DNA of 64,000 bases from assembly GCA_964636325.1 (NCBI GenBank), contig CAZWRV010000030.1, forward strand, positions 62 through 64,061, in the 5' to 3' direction. The notes beneath the pieces were generated by a model that had not been told where the DNA came from, made no database searches, and saw nothing but the letters and a program-made list of their open reading frames with translations. Source of the stretch: an uncultured Victivallaceae bacterium (GTDB taxonomy: Bacteria; Verrucomicrobiota; Lentisphaeria; Victivallales; GWF2-50-93). Each line of letters opens with the position of its first letter. The first letter of the stretch is position 1. This document shows positions 1-64,000 of this stretch, one piece after another. The translations under genes were made by a program, and so were the position numbers.

Positions 1-106
1 CCGCGGTTGAGCTTGGCTCAACCCTCCGGAAGACGACAAAGATAACGACAAAGATGGGCGAGTTTCAGAGGAATGCCAATCTGCGAACCTCGCAGTTTTG
101 TCGGGG
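1..106 (+). repeat. R2 composite dispersed element, copy 1 (5' part cut by window edge)
   Basis: Shares the CCGCGGTTGAGC-TTG-GCTCAACCCTCCGGAAGACGAC hairpin block with 4618-4772, 37764-37936(-) and 47891-47972(-). It has two 12-nt CGACAAAGATAA-type units, then ATGGGCGAGTTTCAGAGGA. Nt 73-106 begin a second CTGCGA-ACC-TCGCAG arm. Confidence 0.8.
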
Positions 107-209
107 TGAAACTTAATCGGCGTCGGGATCGGTATCGGAATCGGGGTCGAAAAGGCAAAGCTCGATAGCGATACCGATACCGACAGCGACCCCGATTAAC
201 AGGGAAGTT

Positions 210-2258
210 TCAGGGGATCGGGTCGATGTCCCACCTGAAGGGGAGGCCTGTGCAGTCGAGGCCGGCGCCGAGTAAGCGTGGGAGAGGCTTTTCCGGCTTC
301 TGGATCCAGGAGCGGTTGTTGCCCTTTTCGCCCTTGCCGCCGCCGGGATACTTGTCCTCGCCGTCCAGATCGATGAACAGAGCCCTGGTCAGTATCTCGG
401 ATCTCGTGCCAGTCTCGCTGAAGGTTGTCGATGAGCCTAAGGAGCCGCCCGCATAGCTGTCGTTTCCGGCGAAGTCGACGAACAGGGCGACGCTGTTGTT
501 GAGGGCCTGGCCGCATGCGGAGGCACCCTCGTATCGGTCGTCCCCGCCCTCCTCGACGAACAAACTTACGGAGAAGTCGTGAGCCGCGGCGACGTTGACG
601 CAGTTGGTGGAGGTGTAGAGATCGTTGCCGCCGCCGTCGCAGAGGTAGCTGATGCCGAAGTGCGCGGTGGCGGACTGCCCGTACCAGACAGAACGGTAGC
701 TGTCGTTTCCGGCGCGGTCGTCAAGTATCCCTATCCCGTACCAGTAACCGACGGCCTGGGAGAAGACTCCTCCGAAATATGCGTCGTTCCCTGCTGCGTC
801 CAGGAGCATGCCGACTCCGCCTGCGCCCGATTCGTTGTCGAGGTAGTCGCGTCGCTCGCCCGATGCGGCGCCCTGGGCCATGCTGCAGTTGTGCTCCTTG
901 GACTGTGCGCTGGGGTATCGGATGTCGGTGTCGTCGGCGGTATATCTGTCGTCGCCTTCGAAGTCCGCCAGCAGGCCCGCGCCGAGCGTGAGGGCGCTGC
1001 CCTGGGCGTAGCAGTATGCATGGTAGCTGTCGTTCCCTGACTTGTCGATCAGGATTCCGACCCCGAAACAGCCGAAGCCCTGCGCTGAGGCGAGCGAGTC
1101 GTAGGAGTCGTCGCCGGCGCCGTCGTAAAGGATGCCCATGCCCATGAAGCCGCAGCCCTGGCTATAGCCTCCGTCCGCCCTGTAGGAGTCGTTGCCAGCG
1201 AGATCCTCTAGGATGCCCCAGCCGAGCATGCCGGAACCGAAGGAGCCCCCCTGCCCCTTCATCTCATATTTGTCGCTTCCGCCCAAGTCTATGATTATTC
1301 CGATCGGATATTTTTCTCCGTCGGACGCGCCGCCGCAATCGTATACGTCGTCGCCGGAACTGTCTATCGTCAGGAGGTAGTGAAGGCCGGGCTGGTAGAT
1401 GTTTGCGGCGCCGCCGGACAGGAAGATGCGTCCGAACTTGGTGTCGCAGGCGAACTCGTATTTTTCCAGTATCTGCTCCTTGCCGAGTTCGGCGGCCGCG
1501 GCGTCCGTGACGGCGGCCAGGTCCTCTCCGGCCACCAGGAAAGCCTGCAGGTCGATCTTGGAGACAATGTCGGCCTGGTCCAGCGACTCCCTGCAGATCA
1601 CCGCCGAATTCAGGTTCTCCTCCTCCTTCTTCTGCTCCTCCTGGCTGGCGGAAATGCTCTTCAGATCCTTCTCGACGGCGTCATAAAGCGCCCTGCGCTC
1701 GGCCTGCGTGAGGCGGCGGAGTGCGCTCTCTCTCCATTTGACGGCCTCCGCCGCGGCGAAGACGATGGCCGCCGCCCATCTCTGAACCTTCTGCGGGACG
1801 ACCGAGTAGTCCGGCACTTTCGCATCCGGGTCAAGTGCGAGAATCGCAGCCTTAAGGGAGTCCGCCTTTTCGGCCTTGCCTTTGCATATCGACAGCGGCG
1901 CAGGATCGATCAGGTCGCGCGCCGACGAGAGGTTGATGAAGGACGCAGCCTCCTGGAATGTCTTATGCGTGGCGCCCTTGGCGGCGAGGATGTTGCCGCG
2001 CATGTGCCTTTCCCAGAACGGTATCCGCAGAGGATGGCAGAACCACCTGTCGAAGATCGGCGACTTGAAGAGCGTCGGATCCGCGCAGACCATCGCCTCC
2101 GGATCGACGCGGAAACCGCCGCGCGAGGTCGCGATCAGCCCGAGCGCATGGTCGAGCGCGTCGGACTGAGGCTCCGCCGCATCCTCGGCAAAAGCCCCCG
2201 GCATAATCGACAGCATCAGGAGCGCAGCCGCAGCCATCACTTTAATGTCAACCATCAT
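210..2258 (-). CDS. Secreted repeat protein of unknown function (12 G-[NDSE]-D-x-Y cores, beta-solenoid-like)
   Basis: 682-aa ORF with an N-terminal signal peptide (MMVDIKVMAAAALLMLSIMPGAFA). The C-terminal 400 aa consist of units of about 26-27 aa: [AS]G-x-D-x-Y ... QG ... G-x-G-[IL]L-x-D. Codon bias is strong; the opposite-strand ORFs look like GC shadows. Confidence 0.75.
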   Translation of the reverse strand: MMVDIKVMAAAALLMLSIMPGAFAEDAAEPQSDALDHALGLIATSRGGFRVDPEAMVCADPTLFKSPIFDRWFCHPLRIPFWERHMRGNILAAKGATHKTFQEAASFINLSSARDLIDPAPLSICKGKAEKADSLKAAILALDPDAKVPDYSVVPQKVQRWAAAIVFAAAEAVKWRESALRRLTQAERRALYDAVEKDLKSISASQEEQKKEEENLNSAVICRESLDQADIVSKIDLQAFLVAGEDLAAVTDAAAAELGKEQILEKYEFACDTKFGRIFLSGGAANIYQPGLHYLLTIDSSGDDVYDCGGASDGEKYPIGIIIDLGGSDKYEMKGQGGSFGSGMLGWGILEDLAGNDSYRADGGYSQGCGFMGMGILYDGAGDDSYDSLASAQGFGCFGVGILIDKSGNDSYHAYCYAQGSALTLGAGLLADFEGDDRYTADDTDIRYPSAQSKEHNCSMAQGAASGERRDYLDNESGAGGVGMLLDAAGNDAYFGGVFSQAVGYWYGIGILDDRAGNDSYRSVWYGQSATAHFGISYLCDGGGNDLYTSTNCVNVAAAHDFSVSLFVEEGGDDRYEGASACGQALNNSVALFVDFAGNDSYAGGSLGSSTTFSETGTRSEILTRALFIDLDGEDKYPGGGKGEKGNNRSWIQKPEKPLPRLLGAGLDCTGLPFRWDIDPIP

Positions 2259-3517: not shown

Positions 3518-4606
3518 ATGCAATATATTCCGCTAGGCAGATCCGGCGTCCAGATTTCGCGTCTGAGCATGGGCTGCGGGCGTCTCCCGGAGAACGACGA
3601 CGAGTCTACGGAGCTCATCCATCGTGCGGTGGCCGCCGGGATAAACTTCTTCGAGACTGCGACATTCTACTGCAACAACCGCTGCCTTGAAAAGACTGGC
3701 ATGGGGTTGAAGGGGCTCCGCGACAAGGTGATGGTCCAGGTGAAGGTGGGAACCGGATGGGACGCGACTGCGGACAGCTTCCGCAAGGAGATGGAAATCC
3801 AGTTCCAGCGCCTGCAGATCGACCGGGCTGACTTCTTCCAGTTCGGCTGGCTCGCCTGGGAGCGCATGCCGGTCGTATTCAAGAAAGGCGGTCCGCTCGA
3901 AGGCGTCCGCAAGTTCATGGACGAAGGATTGATCAAGCACATCGGGTTCACCGGGCACGACACACCGGACAATTTCATTAAGATTCTGGAGACCGGCGTA
4001 TTCGAGAGCATGACCGTATCATACAACCTCTTGAGCCGCGCCTATGAAAAGACGATCGCCCGGGCTCATGAGCTGGGGGTCGGCGTGATCGTCATGAATC
4101 CCGTCGGCGGCGGCATGCTTGGCAATCCGAGCGCCACATTGCGCAAGCTCATACCCGGTTCGGCGACAACCGCGGCCGCAGCCTTGCGATTCGTCCTCGC
4201 CAATCCGGGCGTGTGCACGGCGAATTCAGGCATGAGCAGCATCTCCCAGCTGGAAGAAAACCTGGTTGTCGCCGAGACGGCCTCCGAGCTCAGCGCGGCG
4301 GAACTCGAGCAGATGCGGAAGATTATGGATGAATGCAAGGCCTTGGGCGACGCTTTCTGCACCGGATGCAAATACTGCATGCCCTGCCCCAACGGCGTGG
4401 ACATCCCGGCGAACTTCAACCTCCATAACTATTATAAGATATATGGATTTGAGGACTGGGCGCGGGGCCAGTATGCGGGGATGAAGGAGGAATGCCGCGC
4501 CGACAAGTGTAACGATTGCGCGCAGTGCGAAACCAAATGCCCGCAGAAAATACCCATCCGGCAACAGCTCAAACAGGTTTCCGGGCTGTTCGGCAAGCCG
4601 GAGTAG
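3518..4606 (+). CDS. Aldo/keto reductase with C-terminal 4Fe-4S cluster-binding domain
   Basis: Canonical AKR N-terminus MQYIPLGRSGVQISRLSMGCG. The C-terminus carries CTGCKYCMPCP and CNDCAQCETKCP ferredoxin-type Cys motifs. The ORF track starts at 3479, but MQY (3518) matches the usual family start. Confidence 0.85.
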   Translation: MQYIPLGRSGVQISRLSMGCGRLPENDDESTELIHRAVAAGINFFETATFYCNNRCLEKTGMGLKGLRDKVMVQVKVGTGWDATADSFRKEMEIQFQRLQIDRADFFQFGWLAWERMPVVFKKGGPLEGVRKFMDEGLIKHIGFTGHDTPDNFIKILETGVFESMTVSYNLLSRAYEKTIARAHELGVGVIVMNPVGGGMLGNPSATLRKLIPGSATTAAAALRFVLANPGVCTANSGMSSISQLEENLVVAETASELSAAELEQMRKIMDECKALGDAFCTGCKYCMPCPNGVDIPANFNLHNYYKIYGFEDWARGQYAGMKEECRADKCNDCAQCETKCPQKIPIRQQLKQVSGLFGKPE

Positions 4607-4617
4607 CCTGATTACAT

Positions 4618-4772
4618 GTGGCTGTCATCTGCGGAAATCGCAGTTATTTCGATGAGAAACTCCACGGAGGGCGAAGCCGTGCTGAGCCGCGGTTGAGCTC
4701 GGCTCAACCCTCCGGAAGACGACAAAGCCGGCGACAAAACTAACGACAAAGATGTTCACGTTGCAGAGGAGC
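4618..4772 (+). repeat. R2 composite dispersed element, copy 2
   Basis: Module order: CTGCGGAAATCGCAG hairpin, GGAGGGCGAAGCCGTGCTGAGCCGC, GGTTGAGC-TCG-GCTCAACC hairpin, three 12-nt CGACAAAG-type units, then ATGTTCACGTTGCAGAGGAG. It ends 6 nt before the GH36-like gene ATG. Confidence 0.85.
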
Positions 4773-4777
4773 TTTGC

Positions 4778-7210
4778 ATGAAACTAGAATGTGACGGCAA
4801 GAGCGGCATCCGCGTATTGATACCCGGATGGACAGGCTTCCACCTGGAAGGCCTGCGCCCGGCGTTATGCGTCGACGGGAACAGGATTGCCTGCGATGAA
4901 AATGCGGAAGTCAAACGCCGTTCGGACAGATTCGCCGTCACATGGAAACTTGGCCCATGCAGTCTAGAGATGCGTGCGGAAGGCCAAGTCGGCGGCGGCA
5001 CGGTAGTCACTTCCACCCTTATGAACACCGGCGATAGCGAACTCCGCCTGGATGACGTAGCGTTATTGCAGGCTGACTGCTCGTTATCAAGGCCGACGTT
5101 TGGAACCGACCATTCCCGTGTCCGTATACTTGAGCAAGGCAACTACTGGGGGCGTGTTCGGCCGTTGACGCATTCCTCCGCGGTGACTAGCTCCCTCGAC
5201 GCCGCGGAACCGGGCGGAGCGCCGGCCCGGCAGGAGCGCGCCTCGGACCTTGTCTCCGTCGTGTATGACCAGGACAGCCGACAGGCTCTGCTTGTCGGAT
5301 TCCTGGCAAGCGAACGTTGGCTTGGCCGCATCCTGGCGAACACCGGCCTGGACGGCTCGGTTTCCACATGGCGCATCGGTTTCGACGCAGGAGAACTGCT
5401 TGTCGAACCGAATGAAAGGCTTGAACTGGAGCCCATAATTTTTCTGTCCGGATCGGATCCGTGGCGCCTGTTGATTCAATATGCCGAACAAGCGGCCTTG
5501 AGGCACAGGCCCTGCATGCCTGTAGGACAAGTGGTCTCATGGTGCAGCTGGTATCCATACCGCCTGGGAGTGACCGAGGAACGAATCCTGGCGGAAGCGC
5601 GGATCGCCGCCCGGCGGCTGAAACCCCTCGGGCTGAAAATAATCGAAGTGGATCTCGGATGGGAAGAGCGGAACCTGCCATGCTCGTTCACTGAAAACGA
5701 ACGTTTCCCACATGGTCTGAAATGGCTTTCCGAGCGGCTCCAGGAATTTGGTTTTGAACTGGGGGCATGGAAGGCACCCTACACGATTTCCGAGTTCGAC
5801 CCACTGGTGAAAGAGCATCCTGAATGGCTGGTTTCCGACGAGACGGGGAGCCCTCTGGCGTATTGGGAATGGTTCTGGAAGCCGCACGGAAAAGTTCATA
5901 TCCTGGATCTGACGCATCCGGGTGCCCTTCAATGGCTGCGGGAAAAAGTGCAGAGCCTGACCGACCGCGGCGTACGCTACTTGAAGTTCGACTTCATCGG
6001 CTGCGCGGCGGATGGAAAGGCCAAGCGACGGCACAATCCCCGCATCGTAATGGGGGCCGGCACTGAGGCGGCGCGCAAGGCTGCAAGCCTGATCCGGGAA
6101 GCGGCGCCGGAAGCGCTGATCCTCAATTGTGGCGGACCGGAAATGCCGGGCACGGGCCACTGGCCACTGCTTTACGCATGCAACGACACCGGGAACTCAG
6201 GTTTCATCGGCCATGGGACGCAGTCTCTCAATTATGAAGCCGTGGCCTGCCATCTCTTCAAGAACCGCCGCTGGGGGCTCATCCAGCCTTCCTGCCTAGT
6301 GGTCGGCCTTCCCGGAACTGTAGAAGATGCCCGGCTGAGGGCGACAATCGCATTCCTTGCCGGAGGGCAGATCGACATATCAGACACTCTGACCACGCTA
6401 CCGGAGGAGCGCTGGCAGATCCTGACCGCGACGCTGCCGCCCGCGCCCGCCAGCGCCAGGCCGGTAGACTTGTTTGAGCCACTGGCCATGGTCCACTTCG
6501 ACTACGAAGGCACATGCCGCGGACAGCAGGGGCAGGCCCAGATCTTGCGGGAGCATCCTCCGGCGTCGGTCTGGCATCTGCGCATCAACGCCGGATGGGA
6601 CGAATGGGATCTTGTCGGAATTTTCTGCTACAGCCCGGGCAGCTCTTCGCCAAAGCCGGAGATATGCCGCTACGTGATTCCTTTGACAAAGCTTGGAATC
6701 TCCGAAGCGCTGCCGCTTTGGGGCTACGAGTTCTGGTCAGGGCAATTCCTGGGAAATGTCCCCGGCAAGCGGCACAATGCCGACGCCTACGTCCATCCTG
6801 GAGACTATCAGGATCTGAAAGTCGGAGGCACATCTGGCATACTTGATGTGGCATTCTTCGGGCCCTGCGCCAAGCTTATCTGCCTGCGCCGTCCAAAACC
6901 CCATCCTTGGGTGCTGGGCACCTCCTTCCACCAGAGCTGCGGCCTGGAACTTGCAGATGTCGCATGGGATCCGGCGGCGCGGCGCCTAAGCGGCGAACTG
7001 CGGCGCCCCGAAGGCGAATCGGGAACGATAATTTTCTCTTCTGACGGCCATGTCCCATTAAGAGCCGAGGCGGACGGACGGGAGATACCAGTTCGGCCTG
7101 GCGCATCAGGCAGCTATGCCTTGGCGCTCATAGCCGCCCGCTCCCCGCTGGAGTGGGCGGTATTTTTCTCGGAAGACTTATTTGTTTCAAAGACAAAGGA
7201 GGAAATGTGA
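4778..7210 (+). CDS. Glycoside hydrolase, GH36/clan GH-D alpha-galactosidase-like
   Basis: 810-aa ORF. The TIM-barrel region WCSWYPY..IIEVDLGWE and RGVRYLKFDF resembles the K-x-D nucleophile block of melibiase-type enzymes. No signal peptide. GAGGAG Shine-Dalgarno 6 nt upstream. Confidence 0.7.
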   Translation: MKLECDGKSGIRVLIPGWTGFHLEGLRPALCVDGNRIACDENAEVKRRSDRFAVTWKLGPCSLEMRAEGQVGGGTVVTSTLMNTGDSELRLDDVALLQADCSLSRPTFGTDHSRVRILEQGNYWGRVRPLTHSSAVTSSLDAAEPGGAPARQERASDLVSVVYDQDSRQALLVGFLASERWLGRILANTGLDGSVSTWRIGFDAGELLVEPNERLELEPIIFLSGSDPWRLLIQYAEQAALRHRPCMPVGQVVSWCSWYPYRLGVTEERILAEARIAARRLKPLGLKIIEVDLGWEERNLPCSFTENERFPHGLKWLSERLQEFGFELGAWKAPYTISEFDPLVKEHPEWLVSDETGSPLAYWEWFWKPHGKVHILDLTHPGALQWLREKVQSLTDRGVRYLKFDFIGCAADGKAKRRHNPRIVMGAGTEAARKAASLIREAAPEALILNCGGPEMPGTGHWPLLYACNDTGNSGFIGHGTQSLNYEAVACHLFKNRRWGLIQPSCLVVGLPGTVEDARLRATIAFLAGGQIDISDTLTTLPEERWQILTATLPPAPASARPVDLFEPLAMVHFDYEGTCRGQQGQAQILREHPPASVWHLRINAGWDEWDLVGIFCYSPGSSSPKPEICRYVIPLTKLGISEALPLWGYEFWSGQFLGNVPGKRHNADAYVHPGDYQDLKVGGTSGILDVAFFGPCAKLICLRRPKPHPWVLGTSFHQSCGLELADVAWDPAARRLSGELRRPEGESGTIIFSSDGHVPLRAEADGREIPVRPGASGSYALALIAARSPLEWAVFFSEDLFVSKTKEEM

Positions 7211-7236
7211 AGATCATAGGCAGCTACAGGCGGAAA

Positions 7237-8415
7237 ATGTCATTGGTTATTCGTTCGGCCCTGTGTCTGATTGCAGCCCTGTCCGTCCATGCGCTGACGG
7301 CGACCGAAAATCAGAGGCTTGCCGAGGACGACTTCAGCTACAAGAGTTCGTTCGACGGGGCGGAACCGCTGTTCGTCCATGCCGTCTATCCGGCAGACGC
7401 CAAGGATCTGCCGCTGATGGTTGTCCAGCACGGCTACTGGGGCAAGCGGCAGGACGTGCTCTACAGCCAGAAGCGCATCGCCGAACGCGGATATTTCGCC
7501 ATAGCCCTCGATACGCGCGGCTGGGATAAGGCCGGAGGGAAGCACGACGACGGCGGCGTGGAGATCATGGATATCTACGACGGCATCCAGGAGGCGCTGA
7601 AAAAATTCAAAGGAAAGATCAACCCTTCACGAATCTCGATCGTAGGCTACTCCAACGGCGGGGCGAACGTGTTCTTCTCCACAGTGCGCATGCCTTTCAT
7701 GTTCCGGGCGTCCATGGCGTTCTTCGGAATCCCCGACTACGGGATGTGGTATGAGCTGCAGCAGGGATTCAGGGGCGAGATGAACAAGGCTATCGGCGGC
7801 GAACCTAAGGCCTTACCCGACAAATATCTCGCGCGCAACTCGGCGCTGGCCGTCAAAAACATCGGGCAGACGCGCTTCCATATCGTATATGACGAGGAGG
7901 AGAAGCTCTGCCCCATCCCTATGGACGACGCCTTCGTGGAGGCGGCAAAGAAGGCCGGCCTGAAAAACGTCTTCGTCCATGTGAGCAAGAAAACCGACAA
8001 GAACCGCTGGAACCACGGCTACAACACCAACGGGCATCTTTCCCCGGCCGAGGACATCTTCATGGACGACATCGAAAAATCCAATGCCGCGCCACAGACG
8101 ATGCCGCCGGAAGGCGAACTCGTGGTCCTAGGCTTCGTGGTCACCCCGAAATTCACATGCGTCCTGGGAAGCGGCGAAGACACGGTCGCGACCATAAAAT
8201 ATGCCTTCAGAGGGGAAGGGGCGGGGCTTGAATTCTCAACTCCAGTCACATCTGTCAAGGATGCCAAAGTCCGTCTAATCATCCCCGCCGACGCCTTCAT
8301 GGGCGGGGCAGTCGCCATTATAGACGGCAAGGAGGCCGCATCTTCCAAGGCCGGAGAAGACCTGGCCTTCGAAACGTCGGTCACGAAGAAAATCGAAATC
8401 AGGCCGATAAAATGA
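7237..8415 (+). CDS. Secreted alpha/beta hydrolase (S9 peptidase / esterase-like)
   Basis: Signal peptide MSLVIRSALCLIAALSVHA. Nucleophile elbow G-Y-S-N-G-G in RISIVGYSNGGANVFF. Start moved from 7153 to 7237 to avoid overlapping the upstream gene and to begin at the signal peptide. Confidence 0.7.
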   Translation: MSLVIRSALCLIAALSVHALTATENQRLAEDDFSYKSSFDGAEPLFVHAVYPADAKDLPLMVVQHGYWGKRQDVLYSQKRIAERGYFAIALDTRGWDKAGGKHDDGGVEIMDIYDGIQEALKKFKGKINPSRISIVGYSNGGANVFFSTVRMPFMFRASMAFFGIPDYGMWYELQQGFRGEMNKAIGGEPKALPDKYLARNSALAVKNIGQTRFHIVYDEEEKLCPIPMDDAFVEAAKKAGLKNVFVHVSKKTDKNRWNHGYNTNGHLSPAEDIFMDDIEKSNAAPQTMPPEGELVVLGFVVTPKFTCVLGSGEDTVATIKYAFRGEGAGLEFSTPVTSVKDAKVRLIIPADAFMGGAVAIIDGKEAASSKAGEDLAFETSVTKKIEIRPIK

Positions 8416-8877: not shown

Positions 8878-8916
8878 ATAAATATTCAGTGAAAGGGCGT
8901 AGTTCACTGAATATTT
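8878..8916. repeat. R1 palindromic REP-like element, variant (TAAATATTCAGTGAA-AGGGCGTAG-TTCACTGAATATTTA)
   Basis: Same architecture and the same GGGCGTAG/CTACGCCC centre as the GTATGAATTCAGCAAA copies. Intergenic. Confidence 0.8.
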
Positions 8917-8948
8917 ACCGGCGGATGCCTATTACCCGCAGGAAAAAC

Positions 8949-14823: not shown

Positions 14824-14896
14824 CAAAATGTTTATGCGCATATTTTGGACTTCGAACGCTCAACGCCGAATGAAGCTGAACAATCGGATTTAACAA

Positions 14897-14987
14897 TTCA
14901 GATTTCCGGCGCCCCTCGCTGAAAAGCCACAAGAGTATTTTCCAGCATTTCCAGCCGATTGATAGGTGCGGGTCAGGAAATCTGAAG
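14897..14987. repeat. R4 element (about 92 bp, terminal inverted repeats TTCAGATTTCC / GGAAATCTGAA)
   Basis: About 80% identical to 37262-37353. It starts immediately after the stop codon of the 14988-16568 gene. Confidence 0.75.
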
Positions 14988-16667: not shown

Positions 16668-16945
16668 TTATACTCTTTTAGCGTGAAAATTTACATTTTG
16701 ACGAGCAAGATTTGGGATTGGATTTTTTCGTTCCGACCGAGCGGCGACATGAATGTCGTCCGAGGAAGGAACGGAAAAATACGGCCCAAAGAAGCTCGCC
16801 GCAAGGCGGTTGCGGTCTTTCGGTTTTGCTCCGCCCCCTTCGAGAACCTTCGACACCTCGGTATCGGCGATCTCTCAGAATGCGAAGCAAATTCCAAAAT
16901 CCCAGCAATCAAAATGTAAATTTTTCAGCCTATAAGGAGTATATA
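16668..16945 (+). mobile_element. R3 MITE-like element, copy 1 (about 275 bp, about 35-bp terminal inverted repeats, no ORF)
   Basis: Collinear with 34659-34935 at about 85% identity. The ends TATACTCTTTTAGCGTGAAAATTTACATTTTGA and TCAAAATGTAAATTTTTCAGCCTATAAGGAGTATA are inverted repeats of each other. The many short overlapping track ORFs here are not protein-like. Confidence 0.65.
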
Positions 16946-19640: not shown

Positions 19641-19681
19641 GTATGAATTCAGCAAAGGGGCGTAGTTTGCCGAATTCATAC
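19641..19681. repeat. R1 palindromic REP-like element flanked by an 8-bp direct repeat
   Basis: GTATGAATTCAGCAAAGGGGCGTAGTTTGCCGAATTCATAC. CGCGGGCT occurs immediately on both sides (19633-19640 and 19682-19689). Confidence 0.85.
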
Positions 19682-19989
19682 CGCGGGCTTAACTCGCATG
19701 TAATTTAACGGGAGAGGGACACAATTCCACGGCGCGGATGAAGAAATCATCAACTTCAGGATAAATGCGCCCAGGAAGCAAAACATGAGGCACCTGCCTG
19801 GACATATCCGCAAATTCGACCTGAGATTGAAGCGGAACACCAGGCCATTAAAGCCGACTGACTCTTTCCTCCACATGCTTGACCGCGCGGACGCTATTGA
19901 TATTGCCACAATATGCTGTATAGGTTTTGCCACAGAAGCCGAAATACTGTCTTAATACGCAATTTCAAAAACCGTACATGATTTACTTG

Positions 19990-34521: not shown

Positions 34522-34560
34522 GTGAATTCAGCGAACTACGCCCTTTTGCTGAATTCATAC
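34522..34560. repeat. R1 palindromic REP-like element
   Basis: GTGAATTCAGCGAACTACGCCCTTTTGCTGAATTCATAC. Confidence 0.85.
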
Positions 34561-34600
34561 TTAAAGACACAAGACTAAGAGGTGCGACAAATCCGCCTAG

Positions 34601-34655
34601 GCGGACGCCCTCAACCGAGTTTCTGATCAACAAAACTGCGAATCTCGCAGAGCGG
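34601..34655 (-). repeat. R2 element, partial copy (5' arm only)
   Basis: ..GCCCTCAACCGAGTTTCTGATCAACAAAACTGCGAATCTCGCAGAGCGG aligns with 37880-37934 (GCCCTCCATCGAGTTTCTGATCGACAGAACTGCAAATTTCGCAGATGG). Confidence 0.7.
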
Positions 34656-34658
34656 CAT

Positions 34659-34935
34659 TTATACTCATTTGGCGTGGAAATTGACATTTTACGAGCGAGA
34701 TTTGGAATTGGATTTTTTTGTTCCGACCGAGCGGCGACATGAATCTCGTCCGAGGAAGGAACGGAAAAATACGGCCCAAAGATACTCGTCCGCCTTGGCG
34801 GATTGCGGTCTTTCGGTTTTGCCTCGCACCCTTCGAGAGCCTTCGATACCTCGGTATCGGCGGCCTCCCAGAATACGGAGCGATTCCCGAAATCTCCGCA
34901 ATCAAAATGCTCAATTTTCAGCCTAAAGGAGCATA
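34659..34935 (+). mobile_element. R3 MITE-like element, copy 2
   Basis: Collinear with 16668-16945. Terminal inverted repeats TATACTCATTTGGCGTGGAAATTGACATTTTA / TCAAAATGCTCAATTTTCAGCCTAAAGGAGCATAT. Confidence 0.65.
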
Positions 34936-37196: not shown

Positions 37197-37261
37197 GAAC
37201 AGACATCCCGAGCCATGCGAAAAGAGATGTGGTGAGATACCGACTCCTGAAGGTATTTCAG

Positions 37262-37353
37262 TTCAGATTTCCGGCGCCCCGCCCTGAAAAACCACAAGGT
37301 TATTCCCCCCCCGTTTCTTGCATTTCCAAAGTAGCGGGTCAGGAAATCTGAAG
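37262..37353. repeat. R4 element (TTCAGATTTCC...GGAAATCTGAAG)
   Basis: About 80% identical to 14897-14987. The mutT stop codon (37339-37341) and its last 4 codons lie inside the right terminal repeat. Confidence 0.75.
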
Positions 37354-37728: not shown

Positions 37729-37763
37729 TGTCTTAACTTTGCCAACTGTCACGCTCAAATCGC

Positions 37764-37936
37764 CTCCTCTGAAACTCGCCCATCTTTGTCGCGAACTTTG
37801 TCGTTATCTTTGTCGTTATTTTTGTCGTTATTTTTGTCGTCTTCCGAAGGGTTGAGCCAAGCTCAACCGCGGCTCAGCACGGCTTCGCCCTCCATCGAGT
37901 TTCTGATCGACAGAACTGCAAATTTCGCAGATGGCC
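37764..37936 (-). repeat. R2 composite dispersed element, copy 3 (most complete; five 12-nt units)
   Basis: In element orientation: CTGCGAAATTTGCAG hairpin, GATCAGAAACTCGATGGAGGGCGAAGCCGTGCTGAGCCGC, GGTTGAGC-TTG-GCTCAACC, CTTCGGAAGACGAC, (AAAAATAACGAC)x2, AAAGATAACGAC, AAAGTTCGCGAC, AAAGATGGGCGAGTTTCAGAGGAGG. Confidence 0.85.
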
Positions 37937-38084
37937 ACTCCTCCTGAAACTTGATAATCGGTCCTCAGGTCTTCGTCTCCGTTCTTCGTCTGCTTCATAA
38001 AAGACAAAGACATAAGACGAAGAGTTGCGACAAAGAATTCCGCCATCCACGCCCGAAACGGGCATAGGAAATGGAGGGTTGAGT

Positions 38085-38125
38085 GTATGAATTCAGCAAA
38101 CTACGCCCTTTTGCTGAATTCATAC
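38085..38125. repeat. R1 palindromic REP-like element
   Basis: GTATGAATTCAGCAAACTACGCCCTTTTGCTGAATTCATAC, followed by a partial extra arm GCTGAGTTCAGCA. Confidence 0.85.
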
Positions 38126-38302
38126 TGCTGAGTTCAGCATAACGGGAAGCCTGAATCATCACCCTTCAACTTCGAGCACAGCCCCCTCTCCATCGGTAAG
38201 GCTGAACCGGACTGCCACTTCCTCACCGGCGAAGTCGTGCTGGACTGGCTTGCCATCGCGGCGGACTTCGAACTTCGCGCTGCATGCGGCGTATAACGTC
38301 TG

Positions 38303-39324: not shown

Positions 39325-39365
39325 GTAAATATTCAGTGAACTACGACCTTTCACTGAATATTTAC
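39325..39365. repeat. R1 variant element (GTAAATATTCAGTGAA-CTACGACC-TTTCACTGAATATTTAC)
   Basis: Palindromic, with the same centre as the other R1 copies. Confidence 0.8.
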
Positions 39366-39471
39366 CATGGAAAAATGCAAAATCCAAATGGTTTCTGCCA
39401 AATACTGGTGGAGGACCGTGAAAATTATCGGCTTTGGGTATAAAAACGAACGATTTTGCTTTTTTCTTTAA

Positions 39472-39512
39472 GTGTGAGTTCAGCAAAAGGGCGTAGTTTG
39501 CTGAATTCATAC
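39472..39512. repeat. R1 palindromic REP-like element
   Basis: GTGTGAGTTCAGCAAAAGGGCGTAGTTTGCTGAATTCATAC. Confidence 0.8.
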
Positions 39513-39740
39513 CTTGATCGGCTCGCCCGAGTCCAGCTTCTTCTTCACGTCGGTGGTCTCCGACCACGGACACGCCATTTCGACAATCCCAGTGTTGCCG
39601 TCACGCATCATCGAGAGCTTGCCCTCGTCGACCGGACCTCCGTCGCGCTCCGCCTTGGGCTGTCGCGGATAGAAATGCTTGCGCGGCACCCCGGGCGCGA
39701 ACAGACGGAATATTTCAGCCCCGCCTACGAACTTTTCCGC
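39507..39740 (-). pseudogene. Possible 3' remnant of a truncated gene
   Basis: The coding-like frame NFQPKAEKFVGGAEIFRLFAPGVPRKHFYPRQPKAERDGGPVDEGKLSMMRDGNTGIVEMACPWSETTDVKKKLDSGEPIKV* is open from a TAA inside the solo R3 end. Only an internal GTG start is available (track ORF 39507-39689). The stop lies inside an R1 copy. Confidence 0.3.
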
Positions 39741-39764: not shown

Positions 39765-39831
39765 TCTTACGGAGCGACTTGGAAAATCTTTCTGCCGAAA
39801 AGATAGTTTGCACGCGCCGCGCGCAAACTAC

Positions 39832-39872
39832 CTGCGCGCCGCAAGGGCGCATTTTTCCCGCAGGGAAAAACC
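39832..39872 (+). repeat. R5 double-hairpin element
   Basis: CTGCGCGCCGCAAGGGCGCATTTTTCCCGCAGGGAAAAACC is nearly identical to 46983-47023. The hairpins are GCGCC-GCAAG-GGCGC and TTCCC-GCA-GGGAA. Confidence 0.75.
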
Positions 39873-39955
39873 TAGTATCTTACTGGACAATATATAATGC
39901 CACCGCCCTGTGGGGGGATTGAATATATGCAATCTCAGGTAAAGAAAAGATGCCT

Positions 39956-46867: not shown

Positions 46868-46982
46868 CTTTATTTCTCCCTTGATTCTATTCGGTGCAAC
46901 TTGGAAAACGTTTTTATCAAAGTATGCCGCGTTCGCCTGTAGCGGCAGTGGCGACTTTTGCGAAGTCGCCATACTCAAGCTC

Positions 46983-47023
46983 CTGCGCGCCGCAAGGGCG
47001 CCTTTTTCCCGCAGGGAATAACC
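46983..47023 (+). repeat. R5 double-hairpin element
   Basis: CTGCGCGCCGCAAGGGCGCCTTTTTCCCGCAGGGAATAACC. It is preceded by another hairpin, GGCGACTT-TTGCG-AAGTCGCC. Confidence 0.75.
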
Positions 47024-47132
47024 TGGCTTTTTACGGCTAACCGCGCCAATATTTTGGGGCTTCCGCCGGAAATCCGGTATAAGCCTTCCGCGAGCTGCTT
47101 CGTTATCTCTTGTCCGTTATCCGGCATCCCCC

Positions 47133-48044
47133 TCACACTATCCTCGTCCATTTCGGACGAATCTCGCCGAGGAAATTCATAAGCCTTAACCCGTTTGCGT
47201 TCAGCCACTTGCGATGTTCACGGCATTCCGGGACAAGATCCGCCACCTGCTTCCAGAACTCGGAGCCGTGATCGGCCCTTCGGAGATGGGAGAGCTCGTG
47301 CGCCACCACATATTCGCATACCTTCTCCGGCGCCATCACAAGCCTCCAGTTGAGGCTTATCCTGCGGTTCCGCTTCGAGCAGGTCCCCCAGCTAGTGCGA
47401 AGATCCTTCAGCCAGAGCGAGACGCTTCCGCCTGGCGCGGCCGGCTCAAGGCGCAACCATATCTGCCTGATCAGTTCAGCGCTCCGCCTGAAATACCATG
47501 ATGCCAGCATGGAGGCCATAAGGCGTTCCTGCTCCCGGGCGTCAAGACGATCCAGGCCGGACTTGAAGATCGCTATCCGTCCACCGTCTGCCGCCACGGA
47601 ATGCGAAAAGCCGGTCCCCTTCTCCAGGCGGAGCTCCACCATCTCCCCGCGGAATGGGACCATTACCGTCCCTCCTGCGAGAATCGGCGAAAGGCTGATG
47701 CGGCTCCCTCGGTATTCGGCGAGCTTCCTTCGTATCCAGGCGCCGTGGCGCTCAAGGAAGCGGGCCACCTCGCCTTCGCCGCAGCCGCAGGGAACTCTTA
47801 CGCTTACGCCGCCCGCTCCCACTGAGAGCGAAAGCCTTCTGAACCTTGTGTCCCGTAGGTATGAAATTTCGCAGTTGTCGATGTGAAATGTCTCCTGAAA
47901 CTCACATATCTCTGTCGGTATCTTTGTCGCGAACTTTCTCGTCTTCCGGAGGGTTGAGCCAAGCGCCGCGCCGTAGTCCGACGAAGACGGGAGTAAAATG
48001 ATTTCATGGCGGGCTTGCTGAGGCCGCCATGAAATCATCCTCAA
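47133..48044 (-). CDS. YgjP/DUF45-like M48-type zinc metallopeptidase (start uncertain)
   Basis: HELSHL (HExxH) and WGTCS motifs. The family core begins near [21 protein letters not shown]. The N-terminal roughly 45 codons (TTG start) are a translation of an R2 repeat copy. Confidence 0.7.
47891..47972 (-). repeat. R2 composite dispersed element, copy 4 (degenerate, inside the ygjP-like ORF 5' end)
   Basis: In element orientation: GGCGCGGCGCTTGGCTCAACCCTCCGGAAGACGAGAAAGTTCGCGACAAAGATACCGACAGAGATATGTGAGTTTCAGGAGA. The left arm of the GGTTGAGC hairpin is lost. Confidence 0.7.
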
Positions 48045-49519: not shown

Positions 49520-49531
49520 GCTGTTGAATAA

Positions 49532-49571
49532 TAAAAATTCAGCGAGAGGGCGTAGTTCACTGAATATTTAC
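49532..49571. repeat. R1 variant element
   Basis: TAAAAATTCAGCGAGAGGGCGTAGTTCACTGAATATTTAC, flanked by TTGAATA on both sides (49524-49530 and 49573-49579). Confidence 0.7.
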
Positions 49572-63761: not shown

Positions 63762-63972
63762 GCGGTAGTGCTGACCGATAGAAAGGGACGGACGGGCGAG
63801 GAGGTGCTTGCCGACCACCGGAGCAGGGACTTGGCCGATCGGCAGTGAATATCCCGTTGCCAGTATAGATACCACAATTTTTTTAGTTTAGGTTCCACGG
63901 CTGGACGCTCACGGTGTTCCGCTGATACGGAAGGCGCATTTCAATGATGCGGATTCTACAGCCCGGTGCAGA

Positions 63973-64000
63973 GTATGAATTCAGCAAACTACGCCCTTTT
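63973..64000. repeat. R1 palindromic REP-like element (cut by window end)
   Basis: GTATGAATTCAGCAAACTACGCCCTTTT is identical to the first 28 nt of the copy at 38085. Confidence 0.8.

Follow-up and report, generated by a model that had tools for sequence, protein, structure and literature searches.

Several families of short intergenic repeats have been described in bacteria. Pneumococcal BOX elements follow a modular plan, boxA-boxB(n)-boxC, with conserved ends and a variable number of internal boxB units of about 45 nt; they are shorter than 200 nt, contain hairpins, are co-transcribed with neighbouring genes and are confined to a narrow lineage (PMC3049150). Mycobacterial interspersed repetitive units (MIRUs), according to PMC12548453, are short repeats with tandem units that lie between co-oriented genes and in the orientation of these genes, and they regularly carry a small open reading frame (ORF) that starts at the upstream gene's stop codon and can overlap the downstream start codon at -4. 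REP/BIME, ERIC and Correia-type repeats and MITEs are likewise multi-copy, non-coding, structured and transcribed intergenic sequences, which can alter the expression of flanking genes. Also relevant are synthetic bicistronic designs and natural leader-ORF coupling (reviewed in PMC12548453), where a short leader ORF contains the main Shine-Dalgarno (SD) sequence and ends in a stop codon that overlaps the main start codon. A leader cistron that functions is equipped with a ribosome-binding site of its own. Here, we describe a repeat element, R2, in a 64,000-nt stretch of contig CAZWRV010000030.1 (hereafter the window) from an uncultured Lentisphaeria-like bacterium, and focus on the copy at positions 4618-4771, which lies just upstream of a GH36-like alpha-galactosidase gene. 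In our view it is probably a lineage-specific modular intergenic repeat whose terminal SD sequence is used by ordinary translation initiation, and the short upstream ORF (uORF) that it contributes to is a likely by-product.

As judged by repeat finding, motif searches, alignment and nhmmer, R2 is a modular element of about 150-175 nt composed of modules A, B and C, and is present in the 64 kb as four clear copies (c1 to c4) and two diverged or partial ones. The copy upstream of the hydrolase gene, c2 (4618-4771, plus strand), is full length with all three modules and aligns with c1, c3 and c4 (nhmmer E=4e-49). Module A starts with (G/A)TG(G/C)C.ATCTGCG and contains a small hairpin, which is followed by a T-rich tract and then by the sequence GAAACTC..GGAGGGCGAAGCCGTGCTGAGCCGCGGTTGAGCTYGGCTCAACCCTCCGGAAG. 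The small hairpin, CTGCG-N5-CGCAG, is together with the T-rich tract weakly terminator-like (4629-4653, plus strand, in c2), and in four copies its stem is kept and its loop is variable. The central region of module A forms a second hairpin in c2, CGGAGGG...CCCTCCG (4665-4714, plus strand) around GGTTGAGC-TCG-GCTCAACC (4691-4709), and has an alternative pairing register, TGAGCCG/CGGCTCA. Module B is a tandem array of an A-rich 12-nt unit, ACGACAAAGATA, with 2-5 units per copy (TRF counts of 1.9 in c1, 4.9 in c3 and 1.9 in c4). The array of c2 (4719-4753, plus strand) consists of three degenerate units, ACGACAAAGCCG, GCGACAAAACTA and ACGACAAAGAT, and is less clean than the arrays of c1, c3 and c4. 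Module C, GATGGGCGAGTTTCAGAGGAG, ends in GTTTCAGAGGAG.

The repeat is real, far beyond chance: the hairpin core is matched four times in the window compared with an expectation of 0.01, the nhmmer E-values of c1, c2, c3 and c4 range from 1e-21 to 1e-49, and the motif GTTKCAGRRG occurs six times in the window, each time at an element end. Sequence identity is 94% between c1 and c3, 90% between c1 and c2 and 83% between c2 and c3, and c4 is 71-81% identical to the others. A promoter scan found no sigma-70-like promoter in any copy. The possibility that the element is a coding sequence was considered and rejected, as its DKDNDKD frame is closed by a TGA within the hairpin and has no start codon. 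Among described repeats, the element most resembles pneumococcal BOX; the likeness is one of architecture, and the internal units differ in length (12 nt here). Unlike BOX, the element has no detected terminal inverted repeats (TIRs) or target-site duplications (TSDs), and an SD-like motif next to start codons closes its 3' module.

It is this 3' end that matters for the hydrolase gene. The upstream neighbour, an aldo/keto-reductase/Fe-S gene, ends with a stop codon at 4604-4606, and c2 fills almost all of the 171-nt spacer between the two genes. In the alignment, the similarity of c2 to c1 and c3 runs through GTTKCAGAGGAG and then stops, with 12 of the 17 positions after the ATG of the uORF identical, including all of the last 8; the spacer CTTTGC and the start codon at 4778 are unique DNA outside the repeat. 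The SD sequence GAGGAG (4766-4771, plus strand) forms part of the CAGAGGAG with which the repeat ends, 6 nt upstream of ATG 4778. Because the similarity between copies extends through CAGAGGA(G), the SD of the GH36-like gene is, as far as sequence can show, derived from the last 8 nt of the repeat, as the initial annotation had proposed, and it is probably functional. Its predicted accessibility is intermediate, the SD having a probability of 0.51 of being unpaired and the ATG one of 0.47, and the local hairpin at the SD (7 bp, -10 kcal/mol for a 48-nt context, z = -0.98) is unremarkable. In this genome, 28% of first starts and 18% of internal start codons have an SD-like 4-mer in front of them, a weak estimate of SD usage in which predicted first starts stand in for true starts.

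The start codon itself is conserved. ATG 4778 is the first start codon of an ORF of 810 aa (4778-7210, plus strand), for which the NCBI annotation gives an identical 810-aa product. The ORF has weak Pfam matches to Melibiase and a GH31 TIM barrel and hundreds of full-length homologs, which their sources name alpha-galactosidase. In the closest ortholog (P0001, locus L002; 72% identity) the N-terminus reads MRLACDG, compared with MKLECDG in the window, with the same start Met. The start region at L002 reads caccAGGAGAgcaacATGAgac: AGGAG is found at -11..-7, the same position as in the window, the ATGA is the same, and the element is absent. The start codon of the GH36-like gene is therefore ancestral, and the ATGA is a property of the gene (second codon AAA or AGA) and not of the element. 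Because the AGGAG of the element-free ortholog occupies the same -11..-7 position, the terminal SD of the repeat seems to stand in place of a native one. The homology search gave no 100% match for the 810-aa protein because its 90% protein cluster is represented by P0243, an unrelated 53-aa protein, which is a clustering artefact.

The initial annotation had also drawn attention to a 9-codon uORF, and the sequence reads exactly as it described. From ATG 4752-4754 the frame continues TTC ACG TTG CAG AGG AGC TTT GCA to the stop codon TGA 4779-4781 (4752-4781, plus strand; MFTLQRSFA), which overlaps the hydrolase start codon at 4778-4780 as ATGA, with two bases in common. The uORF ATG is made up of the 'AT' of the last 12-nt unit and the next G, and the TGA of the gene's own ATG and the A of its second codon, AAA (Lys). 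The ATG had been described as conserved in the element; c1, c2 and c3 do have it in one and the same place, but it is shifted by 2 nt in c4, where a TGA follows at once, and is absent from the diverged copies c1b and E3a. The frame that it opens is 20, 9, 16 and 1 codon(s) long in c1, c2, c3 and c4, respectively, with the stop codon outside the repeat in all four copies, and within the 20 nt that precede the uORF ATG, GGAG, GAGG and AGGA are absent from all four. The window contains 550 ATGA sites; at 22% of them the TGA closes an ORF of up to 30 codons that begins at an upstream ATG, and at 10% one of up to 12 codons. A simple model for a chance upstream ORF at an ATGA gives 0.21. The overlap of uORF and ATGA is at chance level and is neither conserved nor encoded by the element. 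We judge the 9-codon uORF to be incidental, a by-product that probably has no selected role.

The remaining copies show how variable the element and its surroundings are. At the window edge, c1 (1-72, plus strand) has lost its 5' part to the cut, and its 20-codon uORF (54-116) enters the next element, c1b (73-217, plus strand). This diverged copy has the start of module A, a hairpin of 6-nt repeats (121-200) as its middle and a GTTTCAGGGGA end; no co-oriented gene follows it, and at its end it overlaps a convergent gene of 682 aa (210-2258, minus strand) at that gene's stop codon. On the minus strand, c3 (37763-37938) is full length with 4.9 12-nt units, carries AGGAGG at 37768-37763 and opens a uORF at 37783-37733. 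Directly upstream of it lies E3a (~37939-38060, minus strand), a diverged copy with a GAC-rich hairpin and a GTTTCAGGAGGA end. Copy c4 (47890-47975, minus strand), in which the ATG and TGA occupy 47907-47902, lacks module A and lies inside an annotated 301-aa YgjP-like ORF, and c5 (34606-34651, minus strand) comprises just module A, its 5' boundary being sharply defined by comparison of paralogous regions. The diverged copies c1b and E3a have retained the start of module A, the GTTTCAGGRGGA end or both, and 6-nt-repeat hairpins take the place of their middle. These long imperfect hairpins (121-200, and 37960-38040 on the minus strand) are built of the 6-nt tandem repeats TCGGGA/CGATAC and AAAGAC/GACGAA and have a GAY-NNN periodicity in common with the 12-nt units. 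Overall, the arrangements are tandem or nested (c1-c1b and E3a-c3) or truncated (c4 and c5): c2, E3a/c3 and c4 lie between co-oriented genes and in the same orientation, and c1/c1b lies where a convergent gene has its 3' end.

At two further loci, the copies meet the start of a gene. At the mutT locus, where the initial annotation had reported a 4-nt gap between uORF stop and ATG, the c3 uORF ends with TAA 37735-37733, followed by gaca and ATG 37728, so that the gap is literally present. In the public annotation, however, as retrieved by exact sequence, this NUDIX gene begins at GTG 37752 (137 aa), 10 nt after the AGGAGG of c3 (37768-37763), and the N-termini of NUDIX homologs map 2-4 residues upstream of the Met encoded by ATG 37728. 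With the GTG start, the c3 uORF would end 17-19 nt inside the NUDIX gene, and translational coupling falls off strongly with such an overlap (PMC12548453). At the second locus, a relative (L006) has rpoD and the YgjP-like gene directly overlapping (caaATGAagc), whereas in the window a strong hairpin and c4 lie between them. The YgjP-like gene (47133-48044, minus strand) is annotated from ATG 48038, 2 nt after the rpoD stop codon, and the annotated frame runs through a 15-bp hairpin and c4, giving a protein of 301 aa compared with 250 aa in the relative with the ATGA overlap. Between the AGGAGA of c4 and the conserved N-terminal region of the YgjP-like protein there is no canonical start codon, only ATC 47882, 8 nt after AGGAGA. 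Either the repeat is translated as an N-terminal extension of about 50 aa, or a non-canonical start is used, or the gene is poorly expressed. The hairpin (47996-48036, minus strand), ATGATTTCATGGCGG-N10-CCGCCATGAAATCAT followed by TTTT, lies directly after the rpoD stop codon and is terminator-like; its stem contains the annotated YgjP ATG, and a simple terminator scan gave no call there.

The element appears to be restricted to this lineage. An exact-pattern scan of 185,579 GTDB species representatives gave no match to the 21-mer of the hairpin core, nor did a degenerate module A pattern that fits all four window copies. The sole match in a JGI metagenome scan was a chance one inside a coding sequence, viral contig scans returned no match to the element, and Rfam searches at gathering and permissive thresholds returned nothing relevant. 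A chimeric peptide from the open frames of the element, used to find spurious ORF calls, had no match in a set of 5.8 billion proteins, and none of the fetched loci of relatives contains the element. For the window's sigma-70 protein there is an NCBI entry of 100% identity, and its next relatives, at 53-57% identity, are from Lentisphaeria/Victivallales metagenome-assembled genomes. A short-read contig (Logan) from this organism terminates within the element core, as a multi-copy repeat would lead one to expect.

Within the window, the repeat has probably been spread by some duplicative process. Two paralogous regions of 240 nt are collinear up to ...GAGTATAA, beyond which module A follows in one of them and unrelated sequence in the other. 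These non-coding regions (16697-16932 and 34687-34925; ~240 nt) are 84-93% identical, and on the minus strand each ends in ...ATGTCAATTTCCACGCCAAATGAGTATAA, which is loosely promoter-like but received no score in the scan. TIRs were not found, the complementarity of the 5' and 3' ends being at best 6-8 nt and not above shuffles (p = 0.08-0.36), and no direct repeat is common to the flanks of c2, c3, c4 and c1b that would indicate a TSD. The element is small, non-coding and multi-copy, with at least 6 copies in 64 kb and empty sites at L006 and in the c5 paralog, as are MITEs; a classical MITE was nevertheless rejected, as TIR and TSD are missing. The same lack of TIR and TSD separates it from REP/BIME, ERIC and Correia-type repeats, as does an orientation strongly tied to the downstream gene. 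No sequence similarity to MIRUs was found, which belong to a different phylum. The features that define them, a stop regularly placed at -4 and an ORF that begins at the upstream stop codon, are missing here, as are the TIR and TSD hallmarks of MITEs. In common with MIRUs, the element has tandem units and, in c2, E3a/c3 and c4, lies between co-oriented genes; in general terms, it is a small, multi-copy, modular intergenic repeat.

The initial annotation had interpreted the c2 arrangement as termination-reinitiation coupling built into a mobile sequence. In such a MIRU-like mechanism, the short ORF would be translated and termination at the ATGA would pass the ribosome to the hydrolase start, so that downstream genes are not silenced. 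The geometry of c2 fits a -4 coupled leader ORF with an embedded main SD, and the concept itself is not new, since MIRUs provide a precedent (Supply et al. 1997, cited in PMC12548453). In addition, the A-rich tract that holds the uORF ATG is unstructured, the c2 SD is half-paired, the c3 uORF ends 4 nt before the SD-less ATG 37728, and the 12-nt unit length is a multiple of 3. The units, however, precede the uORF ATG, so that their length has no bearing on its frame. Moreover, the -4 overlap is found in only one of the four copies, with a stop codon supplied by flanking DNA, whereas MIRUs have the coupled ORF regularly; the uORF ATG of c2 lies 146 nt after the upstream gene's stop codon, not at it, and the same frame has stop codons further upstream in the element. 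The c2 uORF also lacks the ribosome-binding site of a functional leader cistron, and its arrangement is not reproduced in the other copies. The main ATG has a well-spaced SD of its own that, by predicted folding, does not seem strongly occluded, annotation and SD spacing favour GTG 37752 as the NUDIX start, and the c1/c1b locus has no co-oriented downstream gene. Because the uORF is unconserved and without an SD, its stop codon lies outside the repeat, 22% of ATGA sites have such an overlap by chance and the ortholog has the ATGA, the same start codon and the SD without the element, the coupling idea is not supported, and we regard it as very unlikely.

A role as a cis-regulatory leader RNA or as an array of protein-binding sites common to several genes is somewhat less remote, though still unlikely. 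As a leader, the anti-SD-like CCCUCC would pair with either the upstream GGAGGG or the downstream SD; as an array, the 12-nt repeats would bind a regulator. The element is co-oriented with and abuts the downstream gene in three of four loci, hairpin stems are conserved with variable loops, the inverted repeat GAAACTCG/CGAGTTTC of c3 becomes GAAACTT/AAGTTTC in c1b, a compensatory change, and GGAGGG, CCCTCC and GAGGAG follow one another in the order that such a switch would need. However, folds of the whole element do not exceed shuffles in stability (z = -1.7 and -1.0), c2 does not keep the long-range stem intact, a downstream gene is missing at one locus, and alpha-galactosidase, NUDIX and YgjP-like genes form no evident regulon. 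Near-identical, truncated or tandem copies are the pattern of a spreading repeat, and there is neither an Rfam match nor an occurrence beyond this lineage. It could also be argued that the AGGAG before ATG 4778 is native and that the element was inserted just upstream of it, the similar ends of the copies reflecting a preference for SD-like targets. The AGGAG of the ortholog at exactly -11..-7 would agree with this, as would the junctions of tandem copies right after an ...AGGAGGA or ...AGAGGA end, but the likeness of c2 to c1 and c3 reaches upstream of the AGGAG via GTTKCAG, the 5' flanks of c2 and c5 have no SD-like sequence and no TSD is seen, which leaves this alternative improbable to a degree similar to that of coupling. 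A broader proposal, that R2 is an undescribed mobile Lentisphaeria element with a portable 3' translation-initiation region (the unstructured A-rich 12-nt tract plus the SD), which inserts directly before start codons and puts its own SD in place of the native one, with the leader ORF helping at some loci, is doubtful, about on a par with the regulatory leader.

Several observations weigh against the simpler account that we prefer, namely a repeat with a terminal SD used by ordinary initiation and an incidental uORF. As TIR and TSD are missing, mobility is suggested by the distribution only, and six copies from a 64-kb window were examined. Around the uORF ATG, the A-rich tract is unstructured (probability of being unpaired, 0.55-0.74), which could permit SD-independent initiation there. 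The first half of the c2 SD pairs with the spacer (TGCAGAG/CTTTGCA), a pairing strengthened by a T-to-G change specific to c2, and a ribosome translating the uORF would open this hairpin. At the mutT locus, ATG 37728 has no SD of its own, and if it were the real start, a uORF stop codon 4 nt upstream could sensibly load ribosomes. According to the preferred account, 4618-4771 would be one copy of a non-coding repeat whose terminal GAGGAG now acts as an SD, 6 nt upstream of an ancestral start codon, and translation of the hydrolase would start by ordinary SD-directed initiation. The uORF ATG would arise where the last GACAAAGAT unit meets a G, and the frame would merely happen to stay open for 8 codons, until the gene's ATG and the A of its Lys codon provide the TGA.

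The downstream end of the GH36-like gene and the ortholog locus show more conventional junctions. At 7197-7210, the stop codon of the GH36-like gene overlaps the start codon of the next gene as GTGA, with AAGGAGG in front (AAGGAGGaaatGTGA). Here, within the operon of the GH36-like gene, a canonical SD is combined with a -4 coupled junction, and such SD-led NTGA junctions are routine in this genome. The gene that follows encodes an S9/esterase-like protein with a signal-peptide-like N-terminus. At L002 the order is different, with a 504-aa S9-type hydrolase gene (4490-6004) preceding the GH36-like gene (6001-8412), so that the TGA of the ATGA overlap there ends a real upstream gene; the relationship between the S9-like proteins of the window and L002 is a distant one, at 23% identity over 104 aa.

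The contig as a whole is unusually rich in intergenic repeats. A second repeat family comprises eight copies of a palindrome of about 40 nt, GTATGAATTCAGCAAACTACGCCCTTTTGCTGAATTCATAC, located at 8878-8918, 19641-19682, 34523-34561, 38088-38126, 39325-39366, 39472-39513, 49531-49571 and 63965-64000. The copies face either way, most of them follow closely on the end of a gene, and the family resembles REP sequences or terminators. Two further intergenic repeats occur in two copies each, one with nested hairpins at 39831-39883 and 46982-47034 (89% identical) and the other at 14894-14939 and 37259-37304 (87% identical).

The practical value of these findings is modest, but annotators have reason to mask the repeat, because it breaks short-read assemblies and has been annotated as coding sequence in the YgjP-like gene. 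If the element did carry a portable initiation region, this would be a strategy analogous to that of MIRUs and independently evolved. If the SD of the GH36-like gene truly comes from the end of the repeat, the locus would be a clean case of a repeat rewiring a translation-initiation region and leaving the gene unharmed, and would add a case from the PVC group, in a poorly studied phylum, to the few operon-internal families such as MIRU and BOX.

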